Shown piece by piece: positions 14,001-50,948 of a stretch of DNA of 64,000 nt. This DNA comes from an uncultured Acidobacteriota bacterium. Its GTDB lineage: Bacteria; Acidobacteriota; JAQAZP01. The stretch covers positions 736,001 through 800,000 of the forward strand of contig CAWIIB010000009.1 of the NCBI GenBank assembly GCA_963836075.1, written 5' to 3'. Position 1 is the stretch's first letter, and the number at the start of each line of letters is the position of its first letter. The position numbers were made by a program, and so were the translations under genes. The notes beneath the pieces are model-generated. The model was given only the letters and a program-made list of their open reading frames with translations, made no database searches and had not been told where the DNA came from.

Positions 14001-14869
14001 CAAAATGACCGGCAACGTGTCCGTTCTGCTGGGGCTCGGCGATGGAACGTTTTCCGCCGCGGTGAGCTACGCCGCCGGGACCAGGCCTCATGGCCTGGCG
14101 ATCGGCGACATGGACGGTGACACCATCCCCGACCTGGTAACCGCAAACAGCGGCACGGACACTGTTTCAGGTACTGCCCGGTCTCGGCGGCGGGACATTT
14201 GCGGCCGCGGAGCAATTTCCGGTGGGTGCGTTTCCCACATCGGTCAGCATCAACGATCTGAACGGGGATGCGCTGCCCGATCTGGTGGTGACGAACTACA
14301 ATGCCGGCACCATTACACTGCTGACAGGAACCGGCGATGGCAGCCTGGTTTTCGAAGCCGACTATCCCGTCGGCGATGAACCTGCCTGGGTGGCGAGTGG
14401 ATTTCTGGACGCCAACTACTCTCCTGACCTGGCCGTGGCAAAGAACGGTGACGGGGACATCTCGGTGCTGCTCAACCGGAACGTCTTCCCACCACCGTCC
14501 ACGATCTCGGCAACCTACAACTGCACCCCGTCCACCGGCACAGTGCCCTTCACCACCAGCATGCTGGTGCAGATGGTCAATCTCGAGCCAACCCGCCCGG
14601 CAACCCGGATCGCCGCGCGGATCGACGTGGTACTGGCCAGCGGCACCAGCTACTCTAGTTGGCGCCAGGGATATACCAACGTGAGCCAGGGCAGCCAATA
14701 CAGCCTGAGCTGGGGGCAGACGCTACCGGTCTTCGGTTCGGTGATCGGAAACAACATTTTCACCATGAGCGCCGAGGATGTCACGCCCTCTCCGTACAAC
14801 CAGCCGCCCTATCCCCCGGCAGGCGATACGGTAACGGAAATGTGCGTAGTGACGGCAAACGAACCGTAA
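11031..14869 (+). CDS. Large secreted zinc-metalloprotease-like protein with FN3 and FG-GAP/VCBS repeats and the PYNQPPYPP C-terminal domain (two +1 frameshifts at ~13875 and ~14170)
   Basis: Signal peptide, HELGH, two FN3-like repeats (APTNVQATD, GPTGVSASD), DLDGDG..DL repeats continuing through ORFs 13903 and 14222 once one G is removed at each site. Confidence 0.8.
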
Positions 14870-15027
14870 AGAACTCGATTCGACAGATCCCGGGCCTCAC
14901 GCCGGCTGCCGCTCCTCCCCCTCGAGCGGTGCGGGCGTGGGGCCCTTCGCTCTCCTGCCCTGGCTCAAACATCCTGTTACACTGTGACTCCTCACCCCCC
15001 AGTGCCTTGACCACCAGCAGCGCTTCA

Positions 15028-15056
15028 TTGACAAGTTCGAGAGAGCCACCTATATA
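15028..15056 (+). promoter_or_regulatory. Sigma70-type promoter of the TPR-CHAT gene
   Basis: TTGACA-N17-TATATA. Confidence 0.65.
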
Positions 15057-15129
15057 TATGTAATATTGGAAATTGCCTCTTGATCCACATATCAGAACAG
15101 GAAACGTTCGAACACACCGGATTACTGGA

Positions 15130-18100
15130 ATGGTCACTTCTGGTCGACAAGGTTCGACGGCCCTCTCCCTTCTGGCCTTCGCCTGTCTTTTCCTACCCGT
15201 CTCCCTCGTGACACCGGCCCAGGGGCAATCAGGTGAGCACGTGGAAAAAACCGCACCGGCCGTCGAAACAGAACAGCGGCCGGTCCTGCCGGCCGATTCA
15301 GCGGAACAGGTCAAGGAACTGACGGCACGTATCGAGGAGCTGACGAAGACGGGAACCGAAGAGTCGCTCGCCGAGGCGCTGACCCATGCCGAGGAAATCC
15401 TGGCCCTTCGGCTGAAGCACCAGGGGCCGGCTGCCGGCTGGATGACGGCCACAGGTGAACCGGCCGAGTGGTACGAGGTGGGAGACGCGCGGCGTGAGGT
15501 CGAGGATCTCGAGTTGAGGATCGGGTTGGATCTCGAATCGCGGGCCCGGCTGTCCGAGGCCGACGCCGCCGAGGAGTCGCTGGACGAACTTCGCCGGCAG
15601 GGAAAACGCGACGAAGCACTGGAACTGGCCAAGGCGCAACTGGCCACCTACCGCGAACTGCTGGGCGAGGAGCACCTGAACACGGCGGACGGCCTGGCCA
15701 ATGTCGGGAAAATGCTGTCTTCGAAAGGCGACTATTCCGAGGCCGAGCCGTATTACCGGGACTCCCTGGCCCTGAACCGCCGGTTGCTGGGCGACGATCA
15801 TCCGGCTGTGGCCACCAGCATGAACAACCTGGCCATCCTGGTGAAAAGGATGGGGCAGTACGACGAGGCCGAGACGCTGTACCGCGAAGCGCTGGTCACG
15901 ATGCGCCGGCTGCTCGGCGAGAGGGACCTGGAGGTGGCCAGCACCCTGAACAACCTTGCCCAACTGCTCAGGGTAACCGGCGATTACACCGCCGCGGAAC
16001 CCCTCTACCGGGAATCGCTGGCCATTCGCCGGGAACGGCTGGGCAACGAGCACCTGAAGGTGGCCGCGAGCCTGACCAACCTGGCCGGGTTGCTGGTGGG
16101 GAAGGGGGAGTATGCCAGGGCCGAGGCGCTGGCCCGCGAAGCCCTGGCCATCCGGCGCAGCCAGCTGGGTGACCATCACACCGACGTGGCAGGGAGTCTG
16201 GACACTCTGGGACTGATATTGAAGAGGGCCGGGGACTACGACGCGGCCGAACCGATGTCTCGCGAAGCCCTGGCCATCCGGCGGGCATTGCTGGGCAATG
16301 AACACCCGCAGGTGGCTTTGAGCCTGTTCAACCTGGCGGCTCTATTGGAAAAAAAAGGTGATTACGACGAGGCGGAAGTCCTGCTCCGCGAAGCCCTGGC
16401 CATCAATCGCCAGCGTTTTGGCCCCCGGCATCCCAGCGTGGCCGCCAACCTGACCAATTTGGGAAGGATTGCCGAAGCCAGGGGCAAGTATGCGGCAGCG
16501 GAGTTGATGCTCCTCGAAGCACTGGCGATCCAGCGCGAGTTCTACGGCGATGAGCATCGGCACGTGGCCACCAGCTTGAGCGCTCTGGCCGGAGTACTGG
16601 AGAGCAAGGGGGACTACGCGGCTTCCGAATCGCTCTGCCGCGAGGCGCTGGCCATGCGCCGCAAGCTGCTGGGCGACGAACATCAGCTTGTGGCCGTCAG
16701 TCTGAACAACCTGGCACTGTTGCTGGAGAATAAGGGCGACCACGATACGGCCGAGTTCATTCAGCGTGAAGCGCTGGCAATCAATCGAAAAATACTGGGT
16801 GATGAACATGCGGAAGTCGCCACCTGCCTGCAAAACCTGGGCCGCATACTGTCTTCACAGGGCGACTTTGCGACGACCGAGCAGCTGTATCGGGAGGCAC
16901 TGTCGATGCGTCGCCACCTGCTCGGAGATCAGCACCCGGTGGTGGCCGCCAACTTATTCGTTTTGGCATCATTTCTGAGGCTCAGGGGAGACTTTGCGGC
17001 CGCAGAGCCGATGTGTCGCCAAGCGCTGGCCATGCACCGCCGGCTGCAGGGTGATGATCATCCGGAGGTGATCCTCACCATGAACGGCCTGGCCAGATTG
17101 CTCTACGACCGGGGAGATTTCGCTGCAGCCGAAGAATATTGGGCCGCGGCGTCGGACAGATTCGAGACGGCCCGGCTGCGCATCGGCTACGGCGGCCTGG
17201 CACGGGTGCAGTTCACTAAACGGCATTCACCGCTGAGATCCCTGGCGGCGTGCCAGGCCCGCAACGGAAAAATATCTGAAGCATGGAAGGCCCTGGAATC
17301 CGGCCTGGCCCGGGGGCTGCTGGATATGGTGTCGGCAAGGGAGGCCCGCCCGCTGGAGCCATCTGAAAGAACTCGCGAACAGGCCCTGATCAACCGGATG
17401 ATCATCCTTGACGAGCGGATCGGTTCCCTGTCGGCCACTGCGGCAGAGTCCGAGGAAATCCGGTCCCGGCTCGATGCGCTCCGCAATGAACAAGAAATTC
17501 TTCAGGCGGAACTGATCCAGTTCGAGACGAAGATGACTGCCAAATATGGCGCAGCAGCCGGGGAGGTCTACGAACTGCCGCGCATCCAGGCGCAGATGAG
17601 CAGCGATTCGGCACTGTTGGCCTGGGTGGACATCAAGGGAAATCCTCTTTCGGTGAATCCCGGTGGTGAGCACTGGGCCTGCCTGGTCAAAAAGCATGGC
17701 GCACCGATCTGGATCCGGCTTCCGGGAAGTGGAAAGAACGGGACGTGGACAGATGCAGACGATGAAGCACCCGATCAGGTCCGCCAAGCGATGTCCGAGA
17801 ACTCCCGCGAGAAATCGATGCAGCGGAAAGAGCATCTTGTCCGCAGGCTTCTCGCTCAGCGGCTCGCACCGCTTGAGCCGCACCTGGCCGGCATCCACCA
17901 CCTGATTGTATTGCCGGCCGGCAGAATGGCCGGTATCCCCCTGGAAGTGCTGACCGACGACTACACGGTCAGTTACGCACCCTCGGGCACGATATATGCC
18001 TGGCTGAAAGAAAAGAAGCGGAAGCCGGGCCAGCGGCGGTCCGCAGCGACAGGCCCTCCATCACTGCTCGCTGTGGGTGATCCGATCTTCTCCAGCCCGG

Positions 18101-18969
18101 ATGAACCACGGGAGCCCGCCGCCCCAGGTGTAACGCCCTCCCGCCAACTTCTGAATGAAAAGATGTCCACGTTGCGCGGCCAATCATTCGCACCGTTGCC
18201 TGCGTCGCGCCAGGAGGTGGAAGCAATTGCCGCATTGTTTTATCGCCCGGAAGAGGAGACCCGGCCGACCATCCTGCTCGGTTCCGGGGCAAGCGAACAA
18301 CGGCTCGATGCCCTGGCCCAATCAGACGAGCTGAAAATGTTTCGCTATCTCCACCTGGCCACCCATGGTGTGATGGACGACCGGAGAGCAATGAACTCGG
18401 CGATGATCCTCACCAGTGGCAGCCGGGCCGACTCAGTCGAGCAGGCCGTGGCCGGGCAGGAGATCTTCGACGGCCGTCTGACCGCCGGTCAAATCGTCCG
18501 AACCTGGAAGCTCGATGCCGACCTGGTGACCTTGAGCGGCTGTGGAACGGCGCTGGGCCGGAAGTCGGGCGGGGAAGGTTTCCTTGGTTTCTCACAGGCA
18601 CTGTTCGTTGCAGGTTCGCAAAGCCTGCTGCTCAGCCTGTGGAAGGTGGACGACCGGGCGACCATGCTGCTGATGACCAGGTTCTACGAGAACATTCTGG
18701 GGATACACGATCAGCCGCGCCTCATCCCGGGCGGCTCCGAATATCCTGCCGGGGTGCCGTTGCCCAAGGCCGAAGCCCTGCGCGAGGCAAAGACCTGGCT
18801 CCGCACCCTGACTGTTGATCAACTGCGGACCCTGGAGGCGAACCGTGGCGATCGGCAAACCACCGACGCCGCTTCGGGACCGACCACAACAGGCGAATCC
18901 AGCCATTTTCGCCCATATCAGGATCCGCAGTACTGGGCTTCATTCATCCTGATCGGCAACCCGGATTGA
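15130..18969 (+). CDS. TPR-repeat CHAT (caspase-like) protease with N-terminal signal-like segment
   Basis: About 12 42-aa kinesin-light-chain-type TPRs (G.xH..VA..L.NLA); catalytic HLATHG and LSGCGT; C-terminal YWASFILIG. Confidence 0.92.
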   Translation: MVTSGRQGSTALSLLAFACLFLPVSLVTPAQGQSGEHVEKTAPAVETEQRPVLPADSAEQVKELTARIEELTKTGTEESLAEALTHAEEILALRLKHQGPAAGWMTATGEPAEWYEVGDARREVEDLELRIGLDLESRARLSEADAAEESLDELRRQGKRDEALELAKAQLATYRELLGEEHLNTADGLANVGKMLSSKGDYSEAEPYYRDSLALNRRLLGDDHPAVATSMNNLAILVKRMGQYDEAETLYREALVTMRRLLGERDLEVASTLNNLAQLLRVTGDYTAAEPLYRESLAIRRERLGNEHLKVAASLTNLAGLLVGKGEYARAEALAREALAIRRSQLGDHHTDVAGSLDTLGLILKRAGDYDAAEPMSREALAIRRALLGNEHPQVALSLFNLAALLEKKGDYDEAEVLLREALAINRQRFGPRHPSVAANLTNLGRIAEARGKYAAAELMLLEALAIQREFYGDEHRHVATSLSALAGVLESKGDYAASESLCREALAMRRKLLGDEHQLVAVSLNNLALLLENKGDHDTAEFIQREALAINRKILGDEHAEVATCLQNLGRILSSQGDFATTEQLYREALSMRRHLLGDQHPVVAANLFVLASFLRLRGDFAAAEPMCRQALAMHRRLQGDDHPEVILTMNGLARLLYDRGDFAAAEEYWAAASDRFETARLRIGYGGLARVQFTKRHSPLRSLAACQARNGKISEAWKALESGLARGLLDMVSAREARPLEPSERTREQALINRMIILDERIGSLSATAAESEEIRSRLDALRNEQEILQAELIQFETKMTAKYGAAAGEVYELPRIQAQMSSDSALLAWVDIKGNPLSVNPGGEHWACLVKKHGAPIWIRLPGSGKNGTWTDADDEAPDQVRQAMSENSREKSMQRKEHLVRRLLAQRLAPLEPHLAGIHHLIVLPAGRMAGIPLEVLTDDYTVSYAPSGTIYAWLKEKKRKPGQRRSAATGPPSLLAVGDPIFSSPDEPREPAAPGVTPSRQLLNEKMSTLRGQSFAPLPASRQEVEAIAALFYRPEEETRPTILLGSGASEQRLDALAQSDELKMFRYLHLATHGVMDDRRAMNSAMILTSGSRADSVEQAVAGQEIFDGRLTAGQIVRTWKLDADLVTLSGCGTALGRKSGGEGFLGFSQALFVAGSQSLLLSLWKVDDRATMLLMTRFYENILGIHDQPRLIPGGSEYPAGVPLPKAEALREAKTWLRTLTVDQLRTLEANRGDRQTTDAASGPTTTGESSHFRPYQDPQYWASFILIGNPD

Positions 18970-18982
18970 ACCTGATAACACC

Positions 18983-22807
<3,825 letters not shown>

Positions 22808-22822
22808 GGGTCAGTTTTCAGT

Positions 22823-23014
22823 TGTCATCGCGAGAAGCCCAGCACATGTCATCGCGAGGAGCCGCAGGCGACGCGGCGATCTCCTCGGATGTCTTTCCGG
22901 TTCAATGAGAATGCTTCGTCGCAGTCTTCGACGGCTCCTGCAATGACAGCGAAAGAACGATTGTTCCTTCCGCTGACTTCCCGCGGCCCCGCGGGTCGAG
23001 GGCTCGCAATGACA
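22823..23014. repeat. Nested palindromic REP/MITE-like element, TGTCATCGCGAG...CTCGCAATGACA family, copy 1
   Basis: Terminal inverted repeats and internal hairpins; similar to 51050-51223. Confidence 0.75.
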
Positions 23015-23022
23015 GGTCGTCC

Positions 23023-35039: not shown

Positions 35040-35117
35040 TGTCCGGAGAATCACAGCCTAAACAACATCGCCCGGATGAACAGGGATCAGATCTTCGCAA
35101 AGGTGACGGCGAGCTAG
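35040..35117 (+). repeat. Orphan duplicate of the sdhB 3' end
   Basis: 35054-35111 matches 30882-30939 at 52/58 nt; reads [25 protein letters not shown] versus Sdh[27 protein letters not shown]. Confidence 0.9.
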
Positions 35118-36751
35118 GGAGTAACCCCCGTCACGGTGCAAACCGATGTCGCGGTGTCCCCGGCTGGCGGATAGGGCGGCTGGTTGTACGGTGCGGGGGT
35201 CACATCCTCCACCGCCAGGGCGAACAGGTTGTCGCCAATCAGCGAGCCCAGTGCCGGGATACTCTGAATCCAGGGGGCGACGAATTCGGCGCCCGGGCCC
35301 ACATTCGTGTGTCCCGCACGCCAGTTCGGGAAGTACTGCCCGTTGGCCAGCGTCGCGTCCAGCCGGCCGGCGATATTTCGAATCTGGCCGGTGTATTTGT
35401 TGGTCAGTGTCACCGTCATCGTCGTGGCAAACGGCACCGTGCCCGACCCTGGCTGGCAGGTCAATTCCGCTCCGATGGTCCCCAGCAGATTGACCAGGCC
35501 CGGGTAGTCCGGGGCATAGCGCTGAACCTTGAACACATTATTTTGCGTGGCATCCGGATAGGGGTTGATGTATTCCCATACGGTTTCACCCGCGGTGGTC
35601 ACTTCGAAAAAGGTCCCGGTCGCCCCCTCACAGATCACCGTGTTTCCGTCGGGCAGCCGCTGGGCCCCTGAAATGTGACCGGACATGAAGTATTCGGGGT
35701 CCGAGTAGATCCAGGTGGGACCCACTGGCCCGAAAGCTGAGCCGGGCACCATGGTGTAGTTGCCGCCGGCATCCACCGGGGGAACGATCTCGTCCACGCT
35801 GGAGTAGTCCCCGCCGGGTCGATTCAGGCCGTTGTTGAAGACCAGGATATTGCCCGCCCCGGGAGAGCCGGCCTCGATCCACTTCGCATCATGCTGATAC
35901 CAGAACATCCTTTCGCTCTCGGTGCCGGCATCGTACACCTGGGGATTCCCCCAGCGGTAGAGAATGCCACCACCCCTGCCGCTGTTCCCCCCGGTGTGGC
36001 CGGCGGCTTCTTCGGTGGTGGTGCTGTGATCGATCACGTAGATTTCGTTCATGCTGAGGGAGCTGACGATGATCTGGTCGAACTCCTCGTTGTAAGCCAC
36101 GGAATTGAAATGGAGCCAGTCATTGTTGTAGTTCCGCGTGTAGTTGAAGTCGAGCAGCTCGGGGTGGGCGGCCACCACGCCAAAATTGGTCTTGCCGCTG
36201 TCGAAGTCCTGGATCAAGTGGTCCCAGATGTGCCACTCCCAGACGATGTTGCCCTCTTTATCGCCCACCGGCTCGACCTCGACGATGGTCTCCAGCCAGA
36301 GGTTGCCCAGGTCCATCGTCTCCGGGTCCCGGCCGGCGGCGACGGCTTCGGCCACGGTTTTGTATTCGTAGGCAATCATCAGGATGTTACCGTTGGGCAG
36401 TGCTTCCACATCATGGTGCTGGTGGTGGTCGTCGTTCGAATAGTCGAAATCCCAGAGAACGGTCCCGTCCCAGGCAATTCTTTGTACATGCCCGCCCTGG
36501 CGCCGGGGAAAGACGAGATTTTCCTCGTAGTAGGTCCGCAGAATGGTCCCGTCCTCGAGCAGGTAGACACATGCTGCCGCGGTGTGCCCGTTCTCCCACG
36601 TATGCACCACCTGGCCATCCATATCGATCAGGTAGGTTGTGGTGGACTGCATCGGTGCGAACAGGGTGTATCCTTCGGACTGGGCTTGAACCGGATTGGA
36701 TGCGAGAAGGGCCAAAGCCACGAGGGCTACGAAAGGCAAAACATTCTTCAT
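35114..36751 (-). CDS. Secreted arylsulfotransferase (ASST-like) with PYNQPPYPP C-terminal domain
   Basis: Signal peptide; QHHD...LPNGN, DWLHFNS, YRWGNP and QHDA catalytic-type motifs. Confidence 0.85.
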   Translation of the reverse strand: MKNVLPFVALVALALLASNPVQAQSEGYTLFAPMQSTTTYLIDMDGQVVHTWENGHTAAACVYLLEDGTILRTYYEENLVFPRRQGGHVQRIAWDGTVLWDFDYSNDDHHQHHDVEALPNGNILMIAYEYKTVAEAVAAGRDPETMDLGNLWLETIVEVEPVGDKEGNIVWEWHIWDHLIQDFDSGKTNFGVVAAHPELLDFNYTRNYNNDWLHFNSVAYNEEFDQIIVSSLSMNEIYVIDHSTTTEEAAGHTGGNSGRGGGILYRWGNPQVYDAGTESERMFWYQHDAKWIEAGSPGAGNILVFNNGLNRPGGDYSSVDEIVPPVDAGGNYTMVPGSAFGPVGPTWIYSDPEYFMSGHISGAQRLPDGNTVICEGATGTFFEVTTAGETVWEYINPYPDATQNNVFKVQRYAPDYPGLVNLLGTIGAELTCQPGSGTVPFATTMTVTLTNKYTGQIRNIAGRLDATLANGQYFPNWRAGHTNVGPGAEFVAPWIQSIPALGSLIGDNLFALAVEDVTPAPYNQPPYPPAGDTATSVCTVTGVTP

Positions 36752-36967
36752 GGTAAATCCTTAAAATATTGAAACAACAAATTTCGGAAGGATGAACCAT
36801 AGCACAATACGATTGCAGCGGGCATACTTAATTACTGCCCATCAACAGGTTCGTCTCAATTGCCTGACCTGGAACGTAAGTGAAGAACGCACCTCTAAAC
36901 CAGCCATGAACAGCTCGACAGATCCGGGGATCCCTGTGCAACCGGCGAACGCACTCCAATCCAGGCC

Positions 36968-37090
36968 GGCAGCAACAGCACCCTCCTGGTCGCCGAGGAC
37001 GTGACGCCGGCGCCATACAACCAGCCACCATACCTGCCGTCGGGGGCTACAGACCAGGACAGCTGTACGGTTGAAGGGCTTTCACCGTAA
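36968..37090 (+). pseudogene. Orphan fragment of the PYNQPPYPP C-terminal domain
   Basis: GSNSTLLVAEDVTPAPYNQPPYLPSGATDQDSCTVEGLSP*; in-frame stop at 36896 and no start codon upstream of the motif. Confidence 0.8.
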
Positions 37091-41008: not shown

Positions 41009-41060
41009 AAGCGGTGATATGGTCCTCACTACAGCAGACCGACTCTGGAGGCAGGATAGA

Positions 41061-41309
41061 ATGGCTGAGACATACAACGAGAACCTGCTCAAGGTGCTCA
41101 GGCTGACCAGGGAAATGCTGGCCACTGCCGATGAGGGAGACCGGGACCGCAATGACGACTCCTGCGGCATCCTTTATGGAATCCTTCGCGACATGGCCTA
41201 CCGCCTCCGCTCGCTCACCGAAGAGGAGTGTCAAAAGCACAAAACTACCGGCAAATGGTCGGATGAAAATGAAGAAGCAACGATAACCACTTCAAAGGAA
41301 AGGGATTGA
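41061..41309 (+). CDS. Small hypothetical protein leading the oxidative-stress operon
   Basis: 82-aa helical ORF (ADEGD...SCGILYG.LRD.AY) with RBS; abuts ahpC. Confidence 0.75.
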   Translation: MAETYNENLLKVLRLTREMLATADEGDRDRNDDSCGILYGILRDMAYRLRSLTEEECQKHKTTGKWSDENEEATITTSKERD

Positions 41310-41311
41310 CT

Positions 41312-41902
41312 ATGCCTACTCTGGTAACCAAGGAAGCCCCCGATTTCACCGCCACCGCCGTGATGGGCGACAACAGCTTTAACGAGGAGTACAAGCTCGG
41401 CGATCTCCGAGGCAAGTACGCCGTAGTCTTCTTCTATCCCCTCGACTTCACCTTTGTCTGCCCCTCGGAGATCATCGCCTTTGACAAGGCCTACGAGAAG
41501 TTTCAGGCCAAGAACTGTGAGCTGGTGGGTGTCTCGGTGGACTCCCATTTCTCCCACTGGGCCTGGAAGAACACCCCGGTTGATCAGGGTGGCATCGGGC
41601 AGGTAAAATTCCCGCTGGTGGCCGACCTGACCAAGCAGATTTCCCGCGACTACGGCGTTCTGTTCAACGATGCCATCGCCCTGCGGGGCCTCTTCCTGAT
41701 CGACAAGGAAGGTATTGTCCGTCACGCCGTGATCAACGACCTGCCGCTGGGCCGCAACGTGGACGAAGTGCTGCGGATGCTCGACGCGCTGCAGTTCACC
41801 GAAAAGCACGGCGATGTCTGCCCGGCCAACTGGCGCGAAGGCGACGAGGCGATGAAGCCCACCGCCGAGGGCGTGGCCGAATACCTCTCGAAAAACGCCT
41901 GA
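41312..41902 (+). CDS. ahpC: 2-Cys peroxiredoxin (AhpC/TsaA)
   Basis: FYPLDFTFVCPSE and VCPANW. Confidence 0.95.
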   Translation: MPTLVTKEAPDFTATAVMGDNSFNEEYKLGDLRGKYAVVFFYPLDFTFVCPSEIIAFDKAYEKFQAKNCELVGVSVDSHFSHWAWKNTPVDQGGIGQVKFPLVADLTKQISRDYGVLFNDAIALRGLFLIDKEGIVRHAVINDLPLGRNVDEVLRMLDALQFTEKHGDVCPANWREGDEAMKPTAEGVAEYLSKNA

Positions 41903-41980
41903 CCTGCTGACCGGAAATGCCGCGGCAGGGTAATCCGTCCTGCCGCGGCGGTTTATTGCGGATTGATGAGGAAAGATAGG

Positions 41981-42358
41981 ATGAAAATCGAGAGAAACCA
42001 GGTCTTCCGGTGCGAGCATTGTGGTAATATCGCCGACGTCCTCCACGGTGGCGGACCAAAGCTCTTCTGTTGTGGCAAGCCGATGGTCCTCCTCGAGGAG
42101 AACACCGTGGACGCCGCAGTGGAAAAGCACGTTCCGGTGGTCACCAAAGTTGGCGGCGGATTCAAGGTGGCCGTGGGCGACGTGGCCCACCCGATGGCCG
42201 ATGACCACAATATCGAGTGGATCGAAGTGCTGGCCGGCAGTGCCGTGCACCGCCAGTTTCTCAACCCCGGCGAGGCGCCGGAAGCATTCTTCGCGCTGGG
42301 AGCCGACAGCGTGACGGCCCGCGCCTACTGCAACCTCCACGGCTTCTGGAAAAGCTAG
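41981..42358 (+). CDS. dfx: Desulfoferrodoxin (2Fe superoxide reductase)
   Basis: CEHCGN..CCG, EKHVP, HPM..H.IEWI, YCNLHG. Confidence 0.95.
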
Positions 42359-42369
42359 AGGAAAAAGTT

Positions 42370-42891
42370 ATGTTGAATGAAACCGTTGAAAAGAAACTCA
42401 ATTCACAGATCAACGCCGAGCTCTTTTCGGCTTATCTCTACTATTCGATGGCCAACTACTTCGAGTCGATCAGCCTCTCCGGTGCGGCTCATTGGATGCG
42501 CAACCAGGTGATGGAAGAGCTGATTCACGTGCAGAAGTTCGTGACCTACGTCAACGAGCGCCGGGGCACGGTGAAGCTGGAGGCCATCGAGGGCCCGCAG
42601 GTCGAGTGGAAGACGCCGCTGGACGCCTTCGAGGCGGCCTACGAGCACGAGATCCACATCACCGGGCGGATCAACAAGCTGCTCGACGTGGCCCTGAAAG
42701 AGAGCGACCACGCCACCGCCAACTTCCTGCAGTGGTTCGTGGCCGAGCAGGTGGAAGAGGAAGCTTCGGCCGACGCCATCGTGCAGCAGCTGAAGATGGT
42801 GGGGGACAACAAGGGCGGTCTGTTCATGGTGGACAAGGAACTGGCCGGCCGCACCGTGACCCTTCCCCCCGAGCTGACCGGCGGGGCATAA
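42370..42891 (+). CDS. ftnA: Non-heme ferritin
   Basis: QINAELFSAYLY, EE..H, HE, FLQWFVAEQVEEE. Confidence 0.93.
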   Translation: MLNETVEKKLNSQINAELFSAYLYYSMANYFESISLSGAAHWMRNQVMEELIHVQKFVTYVNERRGTVKLEAIEGPQVEWKTPLDAFEAAYEHEIHITGRINKLLDVALKESDHATANFLQWFVAEQVEEEASADAIVQQLKMVGDNKGGLFMVDKELAGRTVTLPPELTGGA

Positions 42892-43021
42892 CCCCCAGGC
42901 GGCCCTGTTCGTGACCCGGAAACAGTTCCGCACGGTCCGGCCTCCGGGCCGGCCGTGCGGTCATGTTTAAAAAGTACTGGTTTTTCATATTTATCAACCC
43001 ATTCCGGAACAGGAGTCGAAC

Positions 43022-43477
43022 ATGAGTGACTGGAATTCCATCGATGAGATCTTTGACTTCGCCATCAAGAACGAAGTGGAGGCAGCCGCCTTCTACCGCG
43101 ACCTGGTGACCAAGAGCGACAGCGCCCAGATCCGGACCATCTTCGAGGGCTTCGCCCGCGAGGAGGACGGACACAAGGCCAAACTGGAGCGGGTCCGGGC
43201 CGGCGGCGAGTTCAAGATGCCCAAGGAAAAGATCATGGATCTCAAGATCGCCGACTACCTGGTGGACGTGGAGCCCGAGGAAGGCACCGACTACCAGCGG
43301 GCGCTGATCCTGGCCATGCACAAGGAAAAGGCCGCTTTCAAGCTCTACACCGACCTCGCCGCTGCCGCCGACGACCAGAAGGTCAAGGACCTGATGATGT
43401 CGCTGGCCAACGAGGAAGCAAAGCACAAGCTGCGTTTCGAGATCGAGTACGACGACAACATCCTGATGGAAAACTGA
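43022..43477 (+). CDS. Rubrerythrin-like ferritin-superfamily di-iron protein
   Basis: Duplicated E..A..FY / EExxH motifs. Confidence 0.88.
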   Translation: MSDWNSIDEIFDFAIKNEVEAAAFYRDLVTKSDSAQIRTIFEGFAREEDGHKAKLERVRAGGEFKMPKEKIMDLKIADYLVDVEPEEGTDYQRALILAMHKEKAAFKLYTDLAAAADDQKVKDLMMSLANEEAKHKLRFEIEYDDNILMEN

Positions 43478-43625
43478 CCCACCGGTAGCCAGCGGCGGCC
43501 GCCGGCCAGCTGAGCCGACCGTCCCGGGAGGCAGGGCAGCGAAACGCCCGCTTCCCGGGGTCCGGCCGACCGCGGCCAGGGGCTGCCACAGCTGAGCACC
43601 CCTGGAAGCGAGACGCTCACCGCTG

Positions 43626-44834
43626 ATGAACAACCGTCTTCTGGACAATATCCACTGGGTGGGTTACGTCGACTGGACCGTGAGAGACTTTCACGGGTAC
43701 GAAACGTCGCACGGCACCACCTACAACGCCTACCTCGTCCGCGACGAGAAAACCGCTCTGATCGACACCGCCAAGGAATCCTTCGCCGACAAGCTGCTGT
43801 CCAACATCTCGGCCCTGGCCGACCCGGCCGACATCGACTACATCGTCTGCAACCATGCCGAACCGGATCACGCCGGCGCCTTCCCGGCGATGGTCAAAGC
43901 CTGTCCGCGGGCCGAGGTAGTCTGCAACGCCAAGGGCAAGGCCGCTCTGGAAAAGCACCACGACACCTCTGACTGGAAGTGGCGGGTGGTGGAGGATGGT
44001 GAATCGATCCCCCTCGGCAAAAATCGCACGCTGCGGTTCCACGACACGCCCATGGCCCACTGGCCGGAGTCGATGGTCACCTTCATCCCCGAAGAGAAGC
44101 TGCTCTTCTCCATGGACATCTTCGGCCAGCACTTCGCCTCGGCCGGAAGGTTCGAGGAGGAGGAGCCCTTTGACGTGATCATGCAGGAGGCCAAGACCTA
44201 CTTCGCCAACATCCTGATGCTCTACGGCCCCATGGTGACCAGGAACCTGAACAAGCTGGCCACGCTGGAACCGGAGATCATCGCCCCCAGCCACGGGGTG
44301 ATCTGGCGCGGCAAGGTCCCCACCATCCTCGAGGCCTACCACCGGTGGGCAGAGCACAAACCCGAGCCCAAGGTGCTGGTGATCTACGACTCGATGTGGA
44401 AGAGCACCGAGAAGATGGCCCACGCGATCCTCGACGGGGCCGCGGTCTCCGGCGTGGAGGCCAAACTGTTCCACATCCGCTCAAGCAACATCACCACCCT
44501 GGCCACCGAGACCCTGGACGCCGCGGCCATCGCCTTCGGCTCCTCGACCCTCAACGCCACCCTGATGCCCCAGGCCGCCGCGGTGCTGACCTACCTCAAG
44601 GGGCTCAAGCCGTTGCGCAAAGCGGGGTTCGCTTTCGGCTCCTACGGCTGGACCAAGGCGGGGATCAAGGACGTGGAGCGCTACCTGGAATCGATGAAGT
44701 TCGACCTGCTGCGCGAGCCGTTGGTCTCGCAGTATGTGCCCGATGCTGACAAGCTGGAGGAGTGCCGCCAGGCCGGGGCACTGCTGGCCCGCAGAGCCCT
44801 GGAAGTGACCGGTGCCACGGAGGAGGTTTCCTGA
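43626..44834 (+). CDS. fprA: Flavodiiron protein (FprA/ROO)
   Basis: GTTYNAY, HAEPDH, HWPESM, PSHG, flavodoxin YDSMW and FGSYGW. Confidence 0.95.
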   Translation: MNNRLLDNIHWVGYVDWTVRDFHGYETSHGTTYNAYLVRDEKTALIDTAKESFADKLLSNISALADPADIDYIVCNHAEPDHAGAFPAMVKACPRAEVVCNAKGKAALEKHHDTSDWKWRVVEDGESIPLGKNRTLRFHDTPMAHWPESMVTFIPEEKLLFSMDIFGQHFASAGRFEEEEPFDVIMQEAKTYFANILMLYGPMVTRNLNKLATLEPEIIAPSHGVIWRGKVPTILEAYHRWAEHKPEPKVLVIYDSMWKSTEKMAHAILDGAAVSGVEAKLFHIRSSNITTLATETLDAAAIAFGSSTLNATLMPQAAAVLTYLKGLKPLRKAGFAFGSYGWTKAGIKDVERYLESMKFDLLREPLVSQYVPDADKLEECRQAGALLARRALEVTGATEEVS

Positions 44835-44995
44835 TGCAAAGCTACGTTTGTGAGATCTGCAACTACGTCTATAATCCGGAAACAGGGGACGAGGACACCG
44901 GCATCGCCCCGGGGACGGCCTTCAAGGATATCCCCGAAGGCTGGCTCTGCCCCATCTGCGGCGCGGAAAAGGACCAGTTCTCACCGGTTGAATAG
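44834..44995 (+). CDS. Rubredoxin
   Basis: CEICNYVY...PGTAF..IPEGWLCPICG; AGGAGG RBS. Confidence 0.95.
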   Translation: MQSYVCEICNYVYNPETGDEDTGIAPGTAFKDIPEGWLCPICGAEKDQFSPVE

Positions 44996-45011
44996 TTCAA
45001 ATTCGAAATTC

Positions 45012-45123
45012 GGGGACGTACATGAATATATGAAATTTTCGCAGTTGTTTGCAGGCTAGCCGTTGCTCAATGCCCATGCAGGTCAACGGATTGCAAAAAA
45101 TTCATATATTCATGTACGTCCCC
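45012..45123. repeat. GGGGACGTACATGAATATATGAA-TIR element, copy B
   Basis: 112-bp element with perfect TIRs, between rubredoxin and rubrerythrin. Confidence 0.85.
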
Positions 45124-45152
45124 AAACTCCAAACTCCGGAGGCCAACAGACC

Positions 45153-45725
45153 ATGAGTCTCAAGGGAACGCGGACGGAAAAGAACCTGCTCACCGCCTTT
45201 GCCGGCGAGTCGCAGGCCAGGAACCGCTACACCTACTATGCCGGTGCGGCGCGCAAGGAAGGCTACCGCCAGATCGCCGAGATCTTCGAGGAGACGGCGA
45301 ACCAGGAGCGGGAGCACGCCAAACGGATGTTCAAGTTCCTCGAGGGGGGCGACGTGGAGATCACCGCCGCCTTTCCGGCCGGGGTCATTGGCACCACCCT
45401 GGAGAACCTCAAGGCGGCGGCCGCCGGCGAGAACCACGAGTGGACCGACATGTATCCCGTGATCGCCCGGGTGGCCCGCGAGGAGGGGTTCAACGAGATC
45501 GCGGCCGTGTTCGACGCCATCTCCGTCGCCGAGAAGCAGCACGAGAAGCGGTTCAAGGATCTGGCTGCCAACATCGAGGCGGGCACCGTCTTCAAGAAGG
45601 ACGAGCCCACCACCTGGCGCTGCCTCAACTGCGGCTACCTCCACGAGGGGCCTGAAGCTCTGGCGATGTGCCCGGCCTGCGCCCACCCTACGGCTCACTT
45701 CGAGCTGCTGGGCGAGAACTGGTAG
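45153..45725 (+). CDS. rbr: Rubrerythrin
   Basis: AFAGESQARNRY, EREH, EKQH, C-terminal CLNCGY...CPAC. Confidence 0.96.
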   Translation: MSLKGTRTEKNLLTAFAGESQARNRYTYYAGAARKEGYRQIAEIFEETANQEREHAKRMFKFLEGGDVEITAAFPAGVIGTTLENLKAAAAGENHEWTDMYPVIARVAREEGFNEIAAVFDAISVAEKQHEKRFKDLAANIEAGTVFKKDEPTTWRCLNCGYLHEGPEALAMCPACAHPTAHFELLGENW

Positions 45726-45731
45726 AAGGGG

Positions 45732-45850
45732 ATCGGGGACGTACATGAATATATGAATTTTTTGGCTGTTGTTTGAAGGCTAGCTGTCGTTCAATGCCCA
45801 TACAGGTCAGCGGATTGTAAAAAATTCATATATTCATGTACGTCCCCGAT
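45732..45850. repeat. GGGGACGTACATGAATATATGAA-TIR element, copy C
   Basis: TIRs and interior similar to copy B, directly after the rbr stop. Confidence 0.85.
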
Positions 45851-45925
45851 TTCGTCTGCAGTAGACTTCGACCATCGGCTAAGTCGCCGACTTTTTATAC
45901 TTTTTGTGTACATCCCCCTTAAAGC

Positions 45926-46957
45926 ATGAACACACCACGCTGGAACCCGCCGTCCCACTGGCCGATGGTCACCACCATCGAGGCCCACACGGCGGGTGAG
46001 CCGCTGCGGGTCATCACCGGCGGCATCCCTCCTCTCCCCGGCGACACCATTCTCGAGAAACGCCGCCACTTCCAGCAGAACCTCGACCAGTTGCGCCGGG
46101 CCCTGATGTGGGAACCACGGGGCCACGCCGACATGTACGGCGCGCTGCCGGTGGAGCCGGTGACCGACGACGGCGACCTCGGCGTGCTCTTCCTGCACAA
46201 CGAGGGGTTCAGTTCCATGTGCGGTCACGGCATCATCGCCCTGGCCACCGTGGTTCTCGACACCGGCATGATCCAGCGGGACGGGGACAACCCGGTGCTG
46301 CGCATCGACTCCCCGGCCGGGCGGATCACCGCCACAGCCCACCGCCATGACGGCAAAGTCAGCTCGGTCTCCTTCACCAACGTTCCGTCCTATGTCCACT
46401 TCACGGACCGCTCCGTCCACGTCCCTGGCATCGGCACCGTCCACTACCAGCTGGCTTTTGGCGGGGCCTACTACGCCTTTGTGGATGCCGGCCCGCTGGG
46501 TCTCGGCCTCGAGCCGGATGATGCGGGCACGCTCATCGACACCGGCCGCCGCATCAAAGCGGCGGTGGCCGCGGCGGAAGAGATCCGCCACCCCTTCGAG
46601 CCCGACCTCGGCTTCCTCTACGGCGTGATCTTCACCGGCCCACCGCTCGTCCCGGCGCACCACAGCCGCAACGTCTGCATCTTTGCAAACGGCGAGCTGG
46701 ACCGCTCGCCCACCGGCACCGGGGTCAGCGCCCGGGCGGCAATCCACCACCTGGACGGCACGCTGGAGCCGGGTCGATCGATCACCATCGAGAGCATCCT
46801 CGGCACCACCTTCGACGTCCAGGTCACTGAAACCCTCGAGTTCGGCGGCTTCCCCGCGGTGATCCCCGAGGTCACCGGCAGCGCCCACATCACCGGCCAG
46901 AGCCGGTTCTGTATCGATCCCGACGACCCCCTGGGAGAGGGGTTCTTTATCAGGTAG
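45926..46957 (+). CDS. Proline racemase superfamily protein, probable trans-3-hydroxy-L-proline dehydratase
   Basis: HTAGEPLR, EPRGH, MCGH (Cys) and DRSPTGTG (Thr in place of the second Cys). Confidence 0.82.
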   Translation: MNTPRWNPPSHWPMVTTIEAHTAGEPLRVITGGIPPLPGDTILEKRRHFQQNLDQLRRALMWEPRGHADMYGALPVEPVTDDGDLGVLFLHNEGFSSMCGHGIIALATVVLDTGMIQRDGDNPVLRIDSPAGRITATAHRHDGKVSSVSFTNVPSYVHFTDRSVHVPGIGTVHYQLAFGGAYYAFVDAGPLGLGLEPDDAGTLIDTGRRIKAAVAAAEEIRHPFEPDLGFLYGVIFTGPPLVPAHHSRNVCIFANGELDRSPTGTGVSARAAIHHLDGTLEPGRSITIESILGTTFDVQVTETLEFGGFPAVIPEVTGSAHITGQSRFCIDPDDPLGEGFFIR

Positions 46958-46980
46958 TTTCCACCAAGGAGGATTCCGGC

Positions 46981-48640
46981 ATGAGAACCGCCCGACCCGC
47001 CCTGCTCTTTCTGGCCGTCCTGCTGGCCGGCGTCCTCGCCGCGGCCGACGGCTTCAGCTGCACCAACATCATCATCGGCCGCGAGGCCACGGTGGACGGC
47101 AGCGTGATCACCTCCCACACCGGCTGCGCCCCCGACTGCCGGGTGCACGTGGTCCCGGCCATGACCCACGAGAAGGGCGCCATGGCCCCGGTCTTTTTCG
47201 GACTGCTGGACGCCAAGGTGCCCTTCAAGCAGTATGGCGAGGTGATCGGCCAGATCCCCCAGGCGGAGCAGACCTACCGCTATTTCCACTCGGCCTACTC
47301 GCACATGAACGAGCACCAGCTGGCCATCGCCGAGAGCACTATGAGCCAGCGGCCCGAGCTGGAGGTGGAACGGACAGAAGAGTTCGCTCCGAAGCAGATC
47401 ATGACCATCGAGCAGGCCCAGGCCTTTGCCATGCAGCGCTGCAGGACGGCCCGGGAAGCCATCACCCTCATCGGGTCACTGATGGACCAGTACCGGCTTC
47501 CTCCCCTCATCGGGCCCCAACCCGGAGGCGCTCTGCATCGCCGACCCCCAGGAGGCCTGGGTCTTCGAGGTATTCAGTGTGGGTAAGGAGTGGGCCCCGG
47601 ACAGCAGCAAACCCGGCGCCATCTGGGCCGCACAACGGGTGCCCGACGACCATGCGGCGGCGGTGCCAAACTGGAGCATCATCAAGGAGATCGACCTCTC
47701 CCGGCCCGACTGGTTCATGGCCTCGGGAAACTATATGCAGTTCGCCGTCGACCGCGGCTGGTATGACCCGGAGGGCAACCGGCCCTTCGTCTGGCAGGAT
47801 GTCTACGCGCCCACCGTCACCGGCGAAAGCGCCATCGGCCGGCTCTGGCTCTTCTACTCCACCATCGCCCCCTCGCTGAGGGAATACCCCGACAAATCAC
47901 TGGCCAAGCCGTTCACCGGGTACGACGCCTACCACCACCCCCGGGAGCCGCTCTCCTTCTACCCCTTTTCGGCCAAACCGGAAGTGCTCCTCTCGGTGCA
48001 GGACGTGATCGCCTTCCAGCGCTCCACCTTCGAGGGAACGATCTACGACATGACCGCCGACACCGACTGGCTGGTGCCGGACGAGGAGGGCAACCTGGTG
48101 AAGAGCCCGCTCACCACCCCCTTTCCCACCTCGCACATGCGGGAGCTGCTGGACATCACCTGGCACCGCAACGTCTCCAAGGGCGGCTACGGCATGGTGG
48201 CCCAGTGCCGCTCCTGGCTGCCCGACGACATCGGCGGGGTCTACTGGCTCTACCTCGACAACCAGTACATGAGCACCTACGTGCCGATTCACGCCGGCGT
48301 GCAGTCCATCCACCCCGGTTTCCAGACCTACGACCCCGAACAGTACAGCGAGGGGTCGGCCCGCTGGCTGATCGACTTCATCGACAACATGCTCTATCTC
48401 AGATTCCAGAATGCGATCGAGGACGTCCGGGCGGTGCGCGACCCGCTGGAGGCCGAGTTCTTCAACTCCCAGCCCCAGCTGGAAGAGCAGGCCCTGGAAC
48501 TCTACCGCACATCCCCGGCCGAGGCCCGGAAGTTCCTCACCGAACTGGCCACCGAACGGATGGAGCGGGTGATGCAGATGTATCGCACCCTGCGCGGCGT
48601 GCTGATCACCAAGTACACCAACAACCACGAGTGGTTGTGA
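46981..48640 (+). CDS. Secreted C69-family dipeptidase (one +1 frameshift at ~47494)
   Basis: Signal peptide followed by nucleophile CT.IIIG..AT.DGS, MNEHQLAIAEST; removing one C restores DQYGF...EAL.IAD..EAWVFE. Confidence 0.85.
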
Positions 48641-48766
48641 GAGGCCGGTCAGAGGGATTGCGCTCGGGTGCATTGCAGCAGTCCCGGATCCACCACCGTT
48701 TCAACTGTTTCATCTGTTTCATCTGTTTCGCCTGATCGGGAATGTAACGCTAGATTACGTTATTGT

Positions 48767-48885
48767 TGTTTCAAATGAAACAGAGTACCAACTTTGTCTT
48801 CCTCGGACCACCGAGCTCTTTTCATCCAAACTATAGTATATCTATTGTTTACACTAAGAATATCGACTTTGGCATGATTGTTGCT
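48767..48885 (+). promoter_or_regulatory. Sigma54 promoter with palindromic upstream activator site
   Basis: TGGCATGATTGTTGC at 48870-48884; TGTTTCA-AA-TGAAACA (TGT-N10-ACA) at 48767-48782. Confidence 0.75.
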
Positions 48886-48974
48886 CTCTATACCCTTGCC
48901 AGCTGAGTTCCTATTTACACAATTATCGAGATATACAGCGGCTTGAAACGTCCACCTTTCGAGGAGGTATTGAA

Positions 48975-50948
48975 GTGAGGGAATTTATTGCTACCAGAGA
49001 TCGGTCTCACCGCCCCGGTTCAGTTTTCACTCTTTTTGCCATTGTCACATTTTTGACGATTTTGCTTGCACCTGTCATTTCTTTGGCACAGATCCCCGAA
49101 CATGATGCCATCACCGAGTATACAGGCCCCGAGACCTGCGTGGCCTGCCACGAGGAGGAGGCGACGGAGCTCCACGCCACCGCCCACTACCAGTGGACCG
49201 GCCCCACCCCCTTCGCCACCAACATCGAGGGCGAAGCTGGCAAGGACGTGCTGGGGTTCAATACCTACTGCGGCAGCCCGGGAACCTCGCGCCGGATCGC
49301 CTGCTCCGGCTGTCACGCCGGCAACGGCGGCGCACCGATGCCCGATCCCACCACCGCCCAGCTGAACAACATCGACTGCCTGATGTGCCACCAGAACGAC
49401 TATGCCAGGAAACCGGCCGGCCCCTTCGAGACCGTGAGCGCCACCGGCCACGACGGCGTGTTCCGCTCCTGGCAGCTGCCGGTGGAGGACGCTGACGGCA
49501 GTTTCCTCTTCGAGCCCAACGAGGCGGTGATGGGGATCACCGTTTTGGAGGCGGCGCAAACCGTCCACATGCCCACCCGCACCACCTGCCTCCGCTGCCA
49601 CGCCTACGCCGCCGGCTCGGACTGTGGCAAGCGGGGTGACCTGGGCACCGGCAGCATCGACCCCCCGATTTCGGCGGACATCCACATGTCACCCGCCGGC
49701 ATGAACATGACCTGCCAGGACTGCCACCTGGCGACGGATCACCGGGTGATGGGCCGCGGCCTTGACCTCCGTCCCAGCGAGATCGCCGAGCAGATGACCT
49801 GCCTGACCGCAGACTGTCACACGACACAGGAGCATGACAGCTGGCGGCTGAACGACCACACCGCCCGGGTGGCCTGCCAGACCTGTCACATCCCCGAATA
49901 CGCCAAGCTGGGCTCCACCGAAATGTCCCGGCACTGGGATACCCCCTACTTCGCCCCGGGGCTGTTCAGCGCCCAGGGCGGGTTCAAGCCCGAGGAGGGC
50001 CGCGCCTCCAACGTCACGCCCACCTATACCTGGTATGACGGGACCTCCCGGGTCTACGTCCTGGGTGATGTGCCGGAGCTGAACAGCGCCGGCCAGTATG
50101 CGCTGGGTATTCCCAACGGAGCCAGCACCACCCGGGAGGGAAAGATCCACCCGATGAAGGAGCACGTCTCCACCTCGGCGCAGCACGACGCCACCGGGCA
50201 GCTGATCCCCCACTCCACCTTCACCTACTTCCTCACCGGCGACTTTGACCAGGCGGTGGCCGACGGCCAGGCCGCTTCGGGGCTCACCGGCAGCTGGACC
50301 GAAGTGGAGGTGCACACCTTCCAGACGATCAACCACGGCGTGGAGCTGCACGACGACGCCCTCGACTGCGGCGCTTGCCACGACTCGATGCAGGGCGGGC
50401 CGCTGGTCATGGACCTGCAGGGCGACCTGGGCTATGAGCTGAAGGGGCCGGAGAGCACGGTCTGCACTCAGTGCCACGAGTGGGAGAATCCAGATGACTT
50501 CCAGGAGACCCACGACAAGCACGTCAGGGAAGAGGGCATCGACTGCCTCTGGTGCCACACCTTCTCCCGGCCCGGCGGCAGCACCCTGGAAGCCGATTTC
50601 AGCCTGACGCCGGACGAGGGCGTGCTGCCCTTCCAGACCCGGATGACCGCCTCTCTGGCCAACCCCTACACCGGCTCCACCCGGCGGGTGTCGGCACGGC
50701 TCAACGCGAGCCTGGCCGATGGCAAGTACTACGGCTCCTGGCGGGCGGGCACCACCAACATCGCCGCCGGAGACAGCTTCAGCATCACCTGGATCCAGAA
50801 CATCCCGGCGCTGGCCTCGCTGATCGGAACGAACACCTTCGCCCTGGTGGCCCAGGACACCACCCCGGCACCGTACAACGAGCCGCCCTACCCGCCGGCC
50901 GGCTCCACCGACAGTTCCGCCGCCATGCTGCTGGGCATGGCACCCTGA
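48975..50948 (+). CDS. Exported multiheme cytochrome c (octaheme tetrathionate-reductase-like core, extended) with PYNEPPYPP C-terminal domain
   Basis: Nine CxxCH plus one Cx4CH (CLTADCH); H..W...N..C, DCLMCH and ACQTCHIP pattern of the OTR family. Confidence 0.85.
   Translation: MREFIATRDRSHRPGSVFTLFAIVTFLTILLAPVISLAQIPEHDAITEYTGPETCVACHEEEATELHATAHYQWTGPTPFATNIEGEAGKDVLGFNTYCGSPGTSRRIACSGCHAGNGGAPMPDPTTAQLNNIDCLMCHQNDYARKPAGPFETVSATGHDGVFRSWQLPVEDADGSFLFEPNEAVMGITVLEAAQTVHMPTRTTCLRCHAYAAGSDCGKRGDLGTGSIDPPISADIHMSPAGMNMTCQDCHLATDHRVMGRGLDLRPSEIAEQMTCLTADCHTTQEHDSWRLNDHTARVACQTCHIPEYAKLGSTEMSRHWDTPYFAPGLFSAQGGFKPEEGRASNVTPTYTWYDGTSRVYVLGDVPELNSAGQYALGIPNGASTTREGKIHPMKEHVSTSAQHDATGQLIPHSTFTYFLTGDFDQAVADGQAASGLTGSWTEVEVHTFQTINHGVELHDDALDCGACHDSMQGGPLVMDLQGDLGYELKGPESTVCTQCHEWENPDDFQETHDKHVREEGIDCLWCHTFSRPGGSTLEADFSLTPDEGVLPFQTRMTASLANPYTGSTRRVSARLNASLADGKYYGSWRAGTTNIAAGDSFSITWIQNIPALASLIGTNTFALVAQDTTPAPYNEPPYPPAGSTDSSAAMLLGMAP

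Follow-up and report, generated by a model that had tools for sequence, protein, structure and literature searches.

Several secretion and anchoring machines were discovered through C-terminal tags, one for each of the tails of the type IX secretion system (T9SS), dockerins, PEP-CTERM and LPXTG. The T9SS type A C-terminal domain (CTD; PF18962 Por_Secre_tail / TIGR04183) is a small beta-sandwich found at the C-terminus of unrelated Sec-exported enzymes and adhesins of the Bacteroidota/FCB group, in tens to hundreds of copies per genome. The type I dockerin (PF00404), a Ca-binding helical repeat, is lineage-expanded on diverse secreted enzymes, and PEP-CTERM consists of a PEP motif, a transmembrane (TM) helix and a basic tail. 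Here we describe a domain of ~123 residues, called the tag below, which forms the C-terminus of three proteins encoded in a 64,000-nucleotide stretch of DNA from an uncultured Acidobacteriota bacterium (assembly GCA_963836075.1, contig CAWIIB010000009.1, positions 736,001 to 800,000; hereafter the window). A first-pass annotation of the window had pointed out this domain and proposed it as part of a new protein-sorting or anchoring system. By analogy with the systems above, we propose that it is probably a lineage-specific C-terminal address tag on ~200 exported proteins. The abundant, lineage-specific C-terminal module on diverse cargo that the annotation envisaged was found; the system part of the proposal was not borne out, as no co-occurring machinery was found.

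The tag shares the terminal position, the small beta-sandwich and the unrelated exported cargo of the T9SS CTD, and it matches none of the described domains by sequence. Pfam (hmmscan on the three copies) returned no family over the shared domain even at E<=10, NCBIfam none at E<=1 save one chance match at 0.037, and a profile search of PDB sequences one chance match (E 0.44), in agreement with the annotation, which could not assign the domain to a named family. Compared with the T9SS CTD, the tag is longer (~120 aa), its paralogues are far more conserved (49% median identity) and its host belongs to the Acidobacteriota; local profile comparison with a FlgD_ig tail gave <1%. The top-50 lists of both fold searches described below name other immunoglobulin (Ig)-like domains, and solved T9SS CTDs are not among the matches listed, which does not speak against a structural relationship with them. 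Unlike the helical dockerin, the tag is an all-beta sandwich with no Pfam match and no duplicated F-hand segment. No hydrophobic or TM helix and no LPXTG motif are present in the tag alignment, consistent with the annotation's view that the domain is neither PEP-CTERM- nor LPXTG-like. Exosortase (PF09721) was matched in 0/3 genomes of the tag genus vs 13/38 other relatives, and sortase (PF04203) gave 0 matches in the window's own genome, with positive controls in 3 genomes. PEP-CTERM matches in the same 41-genome panel numbered 6-7 in three genomes vs 1-2 in the tag genus. The exosortase tally (13/41), like the tally of 25/41 for a glycosyltransferase discussed below, includes a match in one unpublished genome (G025). 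The PPC domain (PF04151) is also a small C-terminal beta domain on secreted peptidases and has no sequence match to the tag. One tag-bearing representative (P0024) carries a PPC domain upstream of its tag, so the two are distinct modules.

The tag in the window and in the genome

The three copies lie where the annotation had placed them, on proteins whose N-terminal parts are unrelated by Pfam (FG-GAP with weak fn3, Arylsulfotrans, and multihaem cytochrome families, respectively) and whose translations each begin with a signal-peptide-like N-terminus. The genes and tag sequences are as follows.

11016..14869, plus strand: cargo gene 1; signal peptide, HExxH region, fn3-like and FG-GAP repeats, then the CTD (Pfam FG-GAP/FG-GAP_3/fn3)
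14492..14866, plus strand: CTD copy 1; 125 aa, ends ...VVTANEP; profile positions 2-124, independent E-value (i-E) 1e-65
35114..36751, minus strand: cargo gene 2; exported arylsulfotransferase-family protein of 545 aa with the CTD; PF05935/PF14269 on residues 36-408
35117..35488, minus strand: CTD copy 2; 124 aa, ends ...TVTGVTP; i-E 4.8e-66; the copy modelled with AlphaFold2 (pLDDT 91.5)
48975..50948, plus strand: cargo gene 3; multihaem c-type cytochrome of 657 aa with the CTD; Pfam PF11783, PF14522
50577..50945, plus strand: CTD copy 3; 123 aa, ends ...LLGMAP; without both Cys; i-E 4e-64
36953..37087, plus strand: truncated CTD relic; last ~45 residues (profile 85-124), i-E 2.6e-11, in a 63-codon open reading frame (ORF)

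The copies are 41-49% identical. Copies 2 and 3 share 49% and 41% identity with copy 1 over 123-125 residues, with no large gaps, and 43 columns are invariant among the three, including P-Y-N-x-P-P-Y-P-P-A-G and a terminal Pro in all three. A profile built from the three copies scores each of them at E 1e-64 to 5e-66, which excludes chance. The terminal Pro in all copies and a Cys pair in two of them, with neither Cys in the cytochrome copy, had been described in the annotation. Its label of gene 1 as a metalloprotease/FG-GAP protein held for FG-GAP; the sole basis of the metalloprotease part was an HExxH string (MHELGH) in the translation, and no peptidase family matched the product at E<=0.01 in Pfam. 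The relic lies between the arylsulfotransferase gene and an aminotransferase gene, and the frames upstream of it hold no more CTD sequence.

The annotation had reasoned that three full copies in 64 kb imply many per genome. We ran the three-copy profile against every stop-to-stop ORF of 60 codons or more in the window's genome (6.23 Mb, 10 contigs, 64% G+C, 94.7% complete). This census gave 227 domain matches in 222 ORFs, of which 217 copies have i-E<1e-5. A second genome search agreed, with at least 150 matches listed from 267 candidates. Tag bearers thus amount to ~200 proteins per genome, or ~4% of the genes. Among the 217 copies, the domain runs right up to the stop codon in 191 and to within 4 residues of it in 203, while 14 are further in or are fragments. 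The near-terminal copies mostly end in Pro (173/203), typically as -AP. The same position is seen outside this genome. A HMMER search of 1.84 billion cluster representatives returned 504 proteins at E<=1e-3 (375 at E<=1e-30), about as many as a few genomes would contain. In 144 of the 150 best representatives the domain is at the very end. One copy is present in 141 of the 150 and more than one in 9, of which seven carry directly adjacent tandem pairs at the C-terminus, one a separated pair and one a partial copy. The sequence continues past the domain in 6/150, with 195-330 extra residues in three, and these extensions may be real or may be read-through calls. Nor did we find a match to a characterised family, a low copy number or frequent internal or cytoplasmic occurrence, the outcomes that the annotation had named as speaking against its proposal.

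The strict terminal position on Sec-exported cargo is a trait of the T9SS CTD. It could also be read as the mark of an outer-membrane export signal that is recognised in the periplasm by a dedicated or type II-like translocon and possibly removed later, as T9SS CTDs are. In addition to the position, the conserved free -AP end and the predominance of one copy per protein fit such a signal, and the very high conservation among paralogues suggests one protein partner. No conserved cleavage motif is visible ahead of the domain in a 30-copy alignment, however, and we consider this explanation rather unlikely.

The cargo is diverse and appears to be exported. Pfam families were found on 44 of 90 representatives scanned at E<=1e-5, and none on the other 46. 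They include M28, S8 and C1 peptidases, GH5 cellulase, right-handed beta-helix/NosD, FG-GAP, PQQ and other propellers, and further BNR, LamG, PA14, CBM96, LTD and F5/8 type C. None of the listed best Pfam stretches of the 90 falls inside the tag. A signal-peptide-like N-terminus was recognised by a crude rule in 83 of 95 representatives of at least 400 aa with a Met start, and several of the 12 misses show a hydrophobic N-terminus without Lys or Arg. Both results agree with the exported, varied cargo described in the annotation.

The range of the tag is narrow. The three-copy profile found matches in its own genome and in two other species of the genus (at least 107 each), and in 0/38 other relatives, all of which are related at the level of the same phylum only. 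With a 30-copy profile, 3/401 Acidobacteriota genomes matched, representing 1/227 genera, and the annotation's suggestion of lineage specificity is thus upheld. The single pattern P[YF]NQPPYP, which would miss divergent copies, occurs at 72 loci in the genomes of 185,579 species. Nearly all of these loci are in two records of metagenome-assembled genomes (MAGs), titled Acidobacteriota bacterium and uncultured bacterium. One further locus is on a 4.2-kb contig of a MAG titled Sulfomarinibacteraceae, which carries two tag genes, one of them frameshifted. It is the sole tag-bearing contig of that 5.1 Mb MAG, and since one short contig alone bears the tag, we read it as probably mis-binned and not as a second tag lineage. 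A full-text literature search returned no description of the domain, which is a thin basis for calling it absent from print. Judged by these sequence searches, the tag is a new domain family, lineage-specific and with a known range of one genus.

Fold, constraint and what occupies the tag's position elsewhere

An AlphaFold2 model built on the 30-copy alignment has a mean pLDDT of 91.5 and a pTM of 0.80, and consists of eight strands in an all-beta arrangement. A long ordered loop at model residues 106-121 corresponds to the Pro-rich motif. The matches that Foldseek returned from the PDB were weak and generic; the best had an E of 7.5e-5 (Spo0M), and RbmA reached a TM-score of 0.66-0.67. A second search, independent of Foldseek, placed RbmA (4be5) at Z 12.2 with a root-mean-square deviation (rmsd) of 2.5 A over 105 aligned residues. 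It was followed by an AlkC Ig-like domain and a transglutaminase beta-barrel (Z 11.2), CARDB (3idu; Z 10.2, rmsd 2.5 A, 99 aligned), complement/macroglobulin MG domains (Z ~10) and PKD (4xed; Z 9.6, rmsd 2.6 A, 94 aligned). None of the matches stands out, and sequence identities are 4-16%. The structural check that the annotation had proposed therefore yielded a confident fold and generic Ig-like matches only.

These neighbours raise the possibility that the tag is an ordinary ligand-binding or adhesion Ig-like module, for an exopolysaccharide, a mineral surface or a matrix, which spread by domain shuffling and has no sorting role. The best structural neighbours are indeed adhesion, matrix or spacer domains of Ig or fibronectin type III (FnIII) type, tandem copies occur, and PKD or CARDB spacers are present on homologues of the cargo elsewhere. 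The ESM Atlas also gave a weak lead to a cluster with CARDB on 22% of its members (score 0.88). On the other hand, the likeness of the tag to RbmA FnIII, CARDB (PF07705) and PKD is at the fold level, with 13-14% sequence identity and no profile match, and when the tag was aligned locally with the CARDB and PKD tails of those homologues by hhalign, the probabilities were 0.1-0.5%; profile-profile comparison with CARDB, PKD and FlgD_ig tails stays below 1% throughout. Such modules usually vary in position and number and are not confined to the C-terminus, unlike the tag, and in the cargo homologues PKD and CARDB follow the enzyme and are themselves followed by a dockerin, which takes the terminal place. 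An ordinary binding module is thus unlikely.

What occupies the end of the cargo homologues was examined for two window proteins. For the arylsulfotransferase, the catalytic part (residues 1-420) was searched and the best 120 of 7997 matches were examined. The nine most similar proteins, among them the query and a paralogue encoded in its own genome, bear the tag, and their catalytic domains share at least 65% identity with the query; tag-less homologues reach up to 66% identity. The rest of the best 120 include 13 with Dockerin_1, 17 with CARDB, 14 with PKD and 1 with FlgD_ig according to precomputed Pfam assignments, and others with no extension. In the tails extracted from 37 homologues, CARDB or PKD modules are followed by a terminal dockerin-like sequence, and wherever a long tail was recovered it ends dockerin-like or T9SS-like. 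The FlgD_ig tail of one homologue resembles a T9SS tail, and its presence in the tag's slot is a further point for the export-signal explanation. For the cytochrome (residues 40-530; best 120 of 1103 matches examined), the top five homologues, 81-86% identical, bear the tag. The rest, at 47-62% identity, include 8 with Dockerin_1, 13 with TSP_3 and 1 with PKD, and many tag-less homologues of ~540-560 aa have no extension. The type I dockerin therefore appears in the terminal slot in both families (13/120 and 8/120 best matches). Two unrelated cargo families place the tag where other lineages put docking or secretion tags, and this analogy is the main argument for an address function.

Dockerins are not evenly distributed in the 41-genome panel. 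Dockerin_1 has 33 and 50 matches in two genomes (G018 and G035), 0-12 in the other 39, and 8-12 in the tag genus. Both dockerin-rich genomes belong to one Acidobacteriota family, and dockerins have thus expanded in a Gram-negative lineage. Together with the PEP-CTERM counts given above, this shows that other Acidobacteriota lineages have enlarged other C-terminal modules, which speaks for the address-tag reading. In the window's own genome, 8 ordinary dockerin matches and 4 cohesin matches were found.

The sequence of the tag is strongly constrained. Across 179 full copies, 27 columns are at least 85% conserved. They include P13, G16, P19-F20, N30, R37, G50, W56-R57-x-G59, P78, G85, F89 and the block D95-V-T-P-x-P-x-N-Q-P-P105 ... 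G110. Among 1500 random pairs of paralogues the median identity is 49%, with a proportion of synonymous differences (pS) of 0.55, near saturation for this G+C-rich genome, and a ratio of nonsynonymous to synonymous change (dN/dS) of ~0.5. None of the 1500 pairs is more than 90% identical. Since pS is nearly saturated and no pair exceeds 90%, the similarity is kept by selection and not by recent duplication or gene conversion, and on these measures the paralogous copies are old and under purifying selection. Between arylsulfotransferase orthologues the tag is 58-79% identical and the catalytic domain 65-86%, so that the tag is about as constrained as the enzyme core. Two Cys, one in the first strand (profile column 11) and one in the last (column 117), are both present in 122 of the 179 copies and both absent in 27, while 30 have one. 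The odds ratio for co-occurrence is 20, although the Fisher p is overstated because paralogues are not independent. This pattern fits a disulfide, and hence an oxidising, non-cytoplasmic location.

Partner candidates and the role of the tag

We searched the window's genome for machinery that could act on the tag. Por_Secre_tail and SprA_N (PF14349) gave 0 matches, with no signal in any control genome either, and PorV (NF033710) gave 0 matches, with a control signal below the cut-off only. These results count weakly against an export signal of the T9SS kind, because the controls of the first two models were silent. Gene neighbourhood was examined on a crude call of 4528 ORFs, including 167/216 tag-bearing ORFs, with 722 genes at most 3 genes away from a tag gene. 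A search for repeat proteins by self-BLAST of 587 ORFs of at least 700 aa found none with 6 or more off-diagonal repeats, though ORFs fragmented by indels may hide some.

Two regions of the genome were considered as candidate partners.

Contig C1:2169994-2172519 (locus L125:8995-11520), minus strand: second secretin, with an acidic/Gly-rich linker and a C-terminal Cohesin domain (PF00963, E 6e-8)
Contig C9:3199790-3207129 (locus L119), minus strand: glycosyltransferase C-type (GT-C) region; an operon with, in this order, a radical-SAM-like gene, a TMTC-like GT-C (with TPR), a 574-aa membrane protein and an S41 C-terminal-processing-type peptidase

The genome encodes two full secretins, one of which is PilQ-like and accompanied by a PilMNO operon. 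The other, with the cohesin tail, lies in an operon with T2SSE (MshEN), T2SSF, PilM-like and PilN-like genes. Its cohesin tail is 92-96% identical within the genus, and homologues 23-48% identical are found in 24/41 panel genomes, most of them on ORFs about as long as a secretin. Whether a genome has such a homologue does not depend on its number of dockerins, and the two dockerin-rich genomes G018 and G035 have no match. A full-text literature search found no description of secretin-cohesin fusions, again a thin basis for a claim that none is in print. A complex prediction of the secretin cohesin with the tag scored 0.00, which counts neither for nor against binding. As the family is widespread in tag-less Acidobacteriota (24/41), we rejected the cohesin-bearing secretin as a tag-specific partner. 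With its secretin, T2SSE ATPase and T2SSF platform protein, the operon, which resembles those of type II secretion systems (T2SS) and type IV pili, could serve to export proteins already folded in the periplasm, and in this respect it favours the export-signal explanation. However, nothing ties it to the tag genes, and T2SS substrates elsewhere are not known to share any linear or modular signal, which also counts against that explanation.

The GT-C region bears on a different possibility, namely that the tag is a periplasmic O-glycosylation acceptor in which the invariant Thr of D-V-T-P-x-P is modified by a TMTC-like or TMEM260-like GT-C, the glycan retaining or protecting the protein. T97 is kept in 178/179 copies and lies within the Pro-rich loop, and a TMEM260-like gene is located 3 kb from the TMTC-like GT-C operon, so that both kinds of gene are in one genome region. 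Animal TMEM260/TMTC-family enzymes mannosylate folded Ig-like domains, which also speaks for this explanation. The 574-aa membrane protein, a second GT-C candidate, has no Pfam match. Orthologues of the TMTC-like and the 574-aa GT-C at more than 70% identity are found in the genus alone, but paralogues at 30-42% identity occur in 15/41 and 25/41 genomes, respectively, nearly all of them tag-less. Furthermore, the region shows no gene linkage with tag genes and there is no direct sign of glycosylation. We therefore regard a glycosylation acceptor as highly improbable. As candidate partners, the two GT-C proteins gained no support from their phyletic profiles, which cannot discriminate here. All relatives outside the genus are merely of the same phylum, so that nearly any gene is genus-specific at the orthologue level and phyletic profiling has no power. 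The profiling for co-occurring machinery that the annotation had proposed thus brought out no partner.

The role that we favour, tentatively and at a little less than an even chance, is non-covalent docking to a single shared cell-envelope receptor that would retain the cargo on the cell surface. Surface docking is favoured because surface-acting cargo dominates (cytochromes, hydrolases and adhesin-like repeats), because dockerins offer an analogy and because tandem copies occur. In the proposed sequence of events, the cargo would pass the inner membrane via Sec, as its N-termini suggest. The tag would then fold in the oxidising periplasm, where a putative disulfide staples the first and last strands, and it would confer one common post-export fate on all cargo, as by analogy with other terminal tags. 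In the favoured version of this fate, enzymes, cytochromes and adhesins would be kept on the surface through the predicted envelope receptor, as is done by dockerins or by cleaved and anchored T9SS tails elsewhere. The likely recognition surface is the nearly invariant loop D-V-T-P-x-P-[YF]-N-Q-P-P-Y-P-P-x-G-D together with the free -AP end.

Several observations weigh against an address function and against docking in particular. No receptor or machinery was found in the searches of the window's genome. No non-cargo family is clearly enriched among the 722 neighbour genes, the largest excess being 13/36 members vs 16% expected, and in self-BLAST 79 ORFs of at least 1100 aa have no off-diagonal repeat of 50 aa or more, so that no scaffold-like repeat protein is seen. 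The modelled fold is a common Ig/FnIII-like beta-sandwich and is silent on function. Directly adjacent tandem tag-tag ends (7/150) are a trait of binding modules more than of secretion signals. The positional analogy with dockerins and T9SS tails is indirect, as many homologues carry no extension. Finally, signal peptides are a blunt measure of export here: with a looser rule on ORFs of at least 500 codons in the window's genome, 119/136 tagged vs 474/1000 control ORFs were positive, and the rule is enriched for tagged ORFs yet unspecific.

A broader proposal is that the tag is the visible half of a previously unrecognised, genus-restricted sorting system. Its envelope machinery would read the Pro-rich loop and the -AP end, and would export and/or anchor ~4% of the proteome, including multihaem cytochromes. 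We consider this a doubtful possibility. If true, such a system would parallel T9SS or cohesin-dockerin in function and be unrelated to either. Whatever its fate-determining role, the tag gives an immediate way to list the surface and secreted proteome of an uncultured sediment Acidobacteriota lineage, and its cargo hydrolases and multihaem cytochromes are relevant to organic-matter breakdown and extracellular electron transfer. It is also a defined bait for a receptor, and a case study of a new tag arising and sweeping one lineage. Since it is known from a single genus, its wider reach is limited.

Frameshifts in cargo gene 1

Cargo gene 1 is split in this assembly into three overlapping ORFs (11016-14120, 13903-14379 and 14222-14869). 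One extra G is present at ~13874 and another at ~14170, each preceding GTACT. We compared the region with contigs from four public sediment-metagenome runs of four studies, two of them otherwise identical to the window and two 92-99% alike. The best-matching run may be the source sample itself, and the two divergent runs are independent. No RNA run was among the public runs listed for this region. These contigs lack one base at 13874 in 4/4 runs and at 14170 in 3/3 covering runs, and in them gene 1 is a single frame of ~1284 codons with signal peptide and tag. The extra bases are most simply assembly errors, and a strain-specific change may be an alternative origin. A GGTAC-specific sequence context was tried as the cause of the frameshifts and rejected, as it was no more enriched than other motifs. 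Similar indels probably fragment further genes of this genome, tag genes among them, and the counts of intact cargo and signal peptides given above are therefore lower bounds. Orthologues of gene 1 were sought at the DNA level in the two other species of the genus, and the tag part alone was found, at ~70% identity. Contig C1 (1765103-1766487) carries a segmental paralogue of window positions 13453-14838 that is 81% identical in nucleotide sequence across 1386 bases. Its frame is shifted in the same way at the counterpart of 14170, and this shared shift suggests a context-dependent assembly error.

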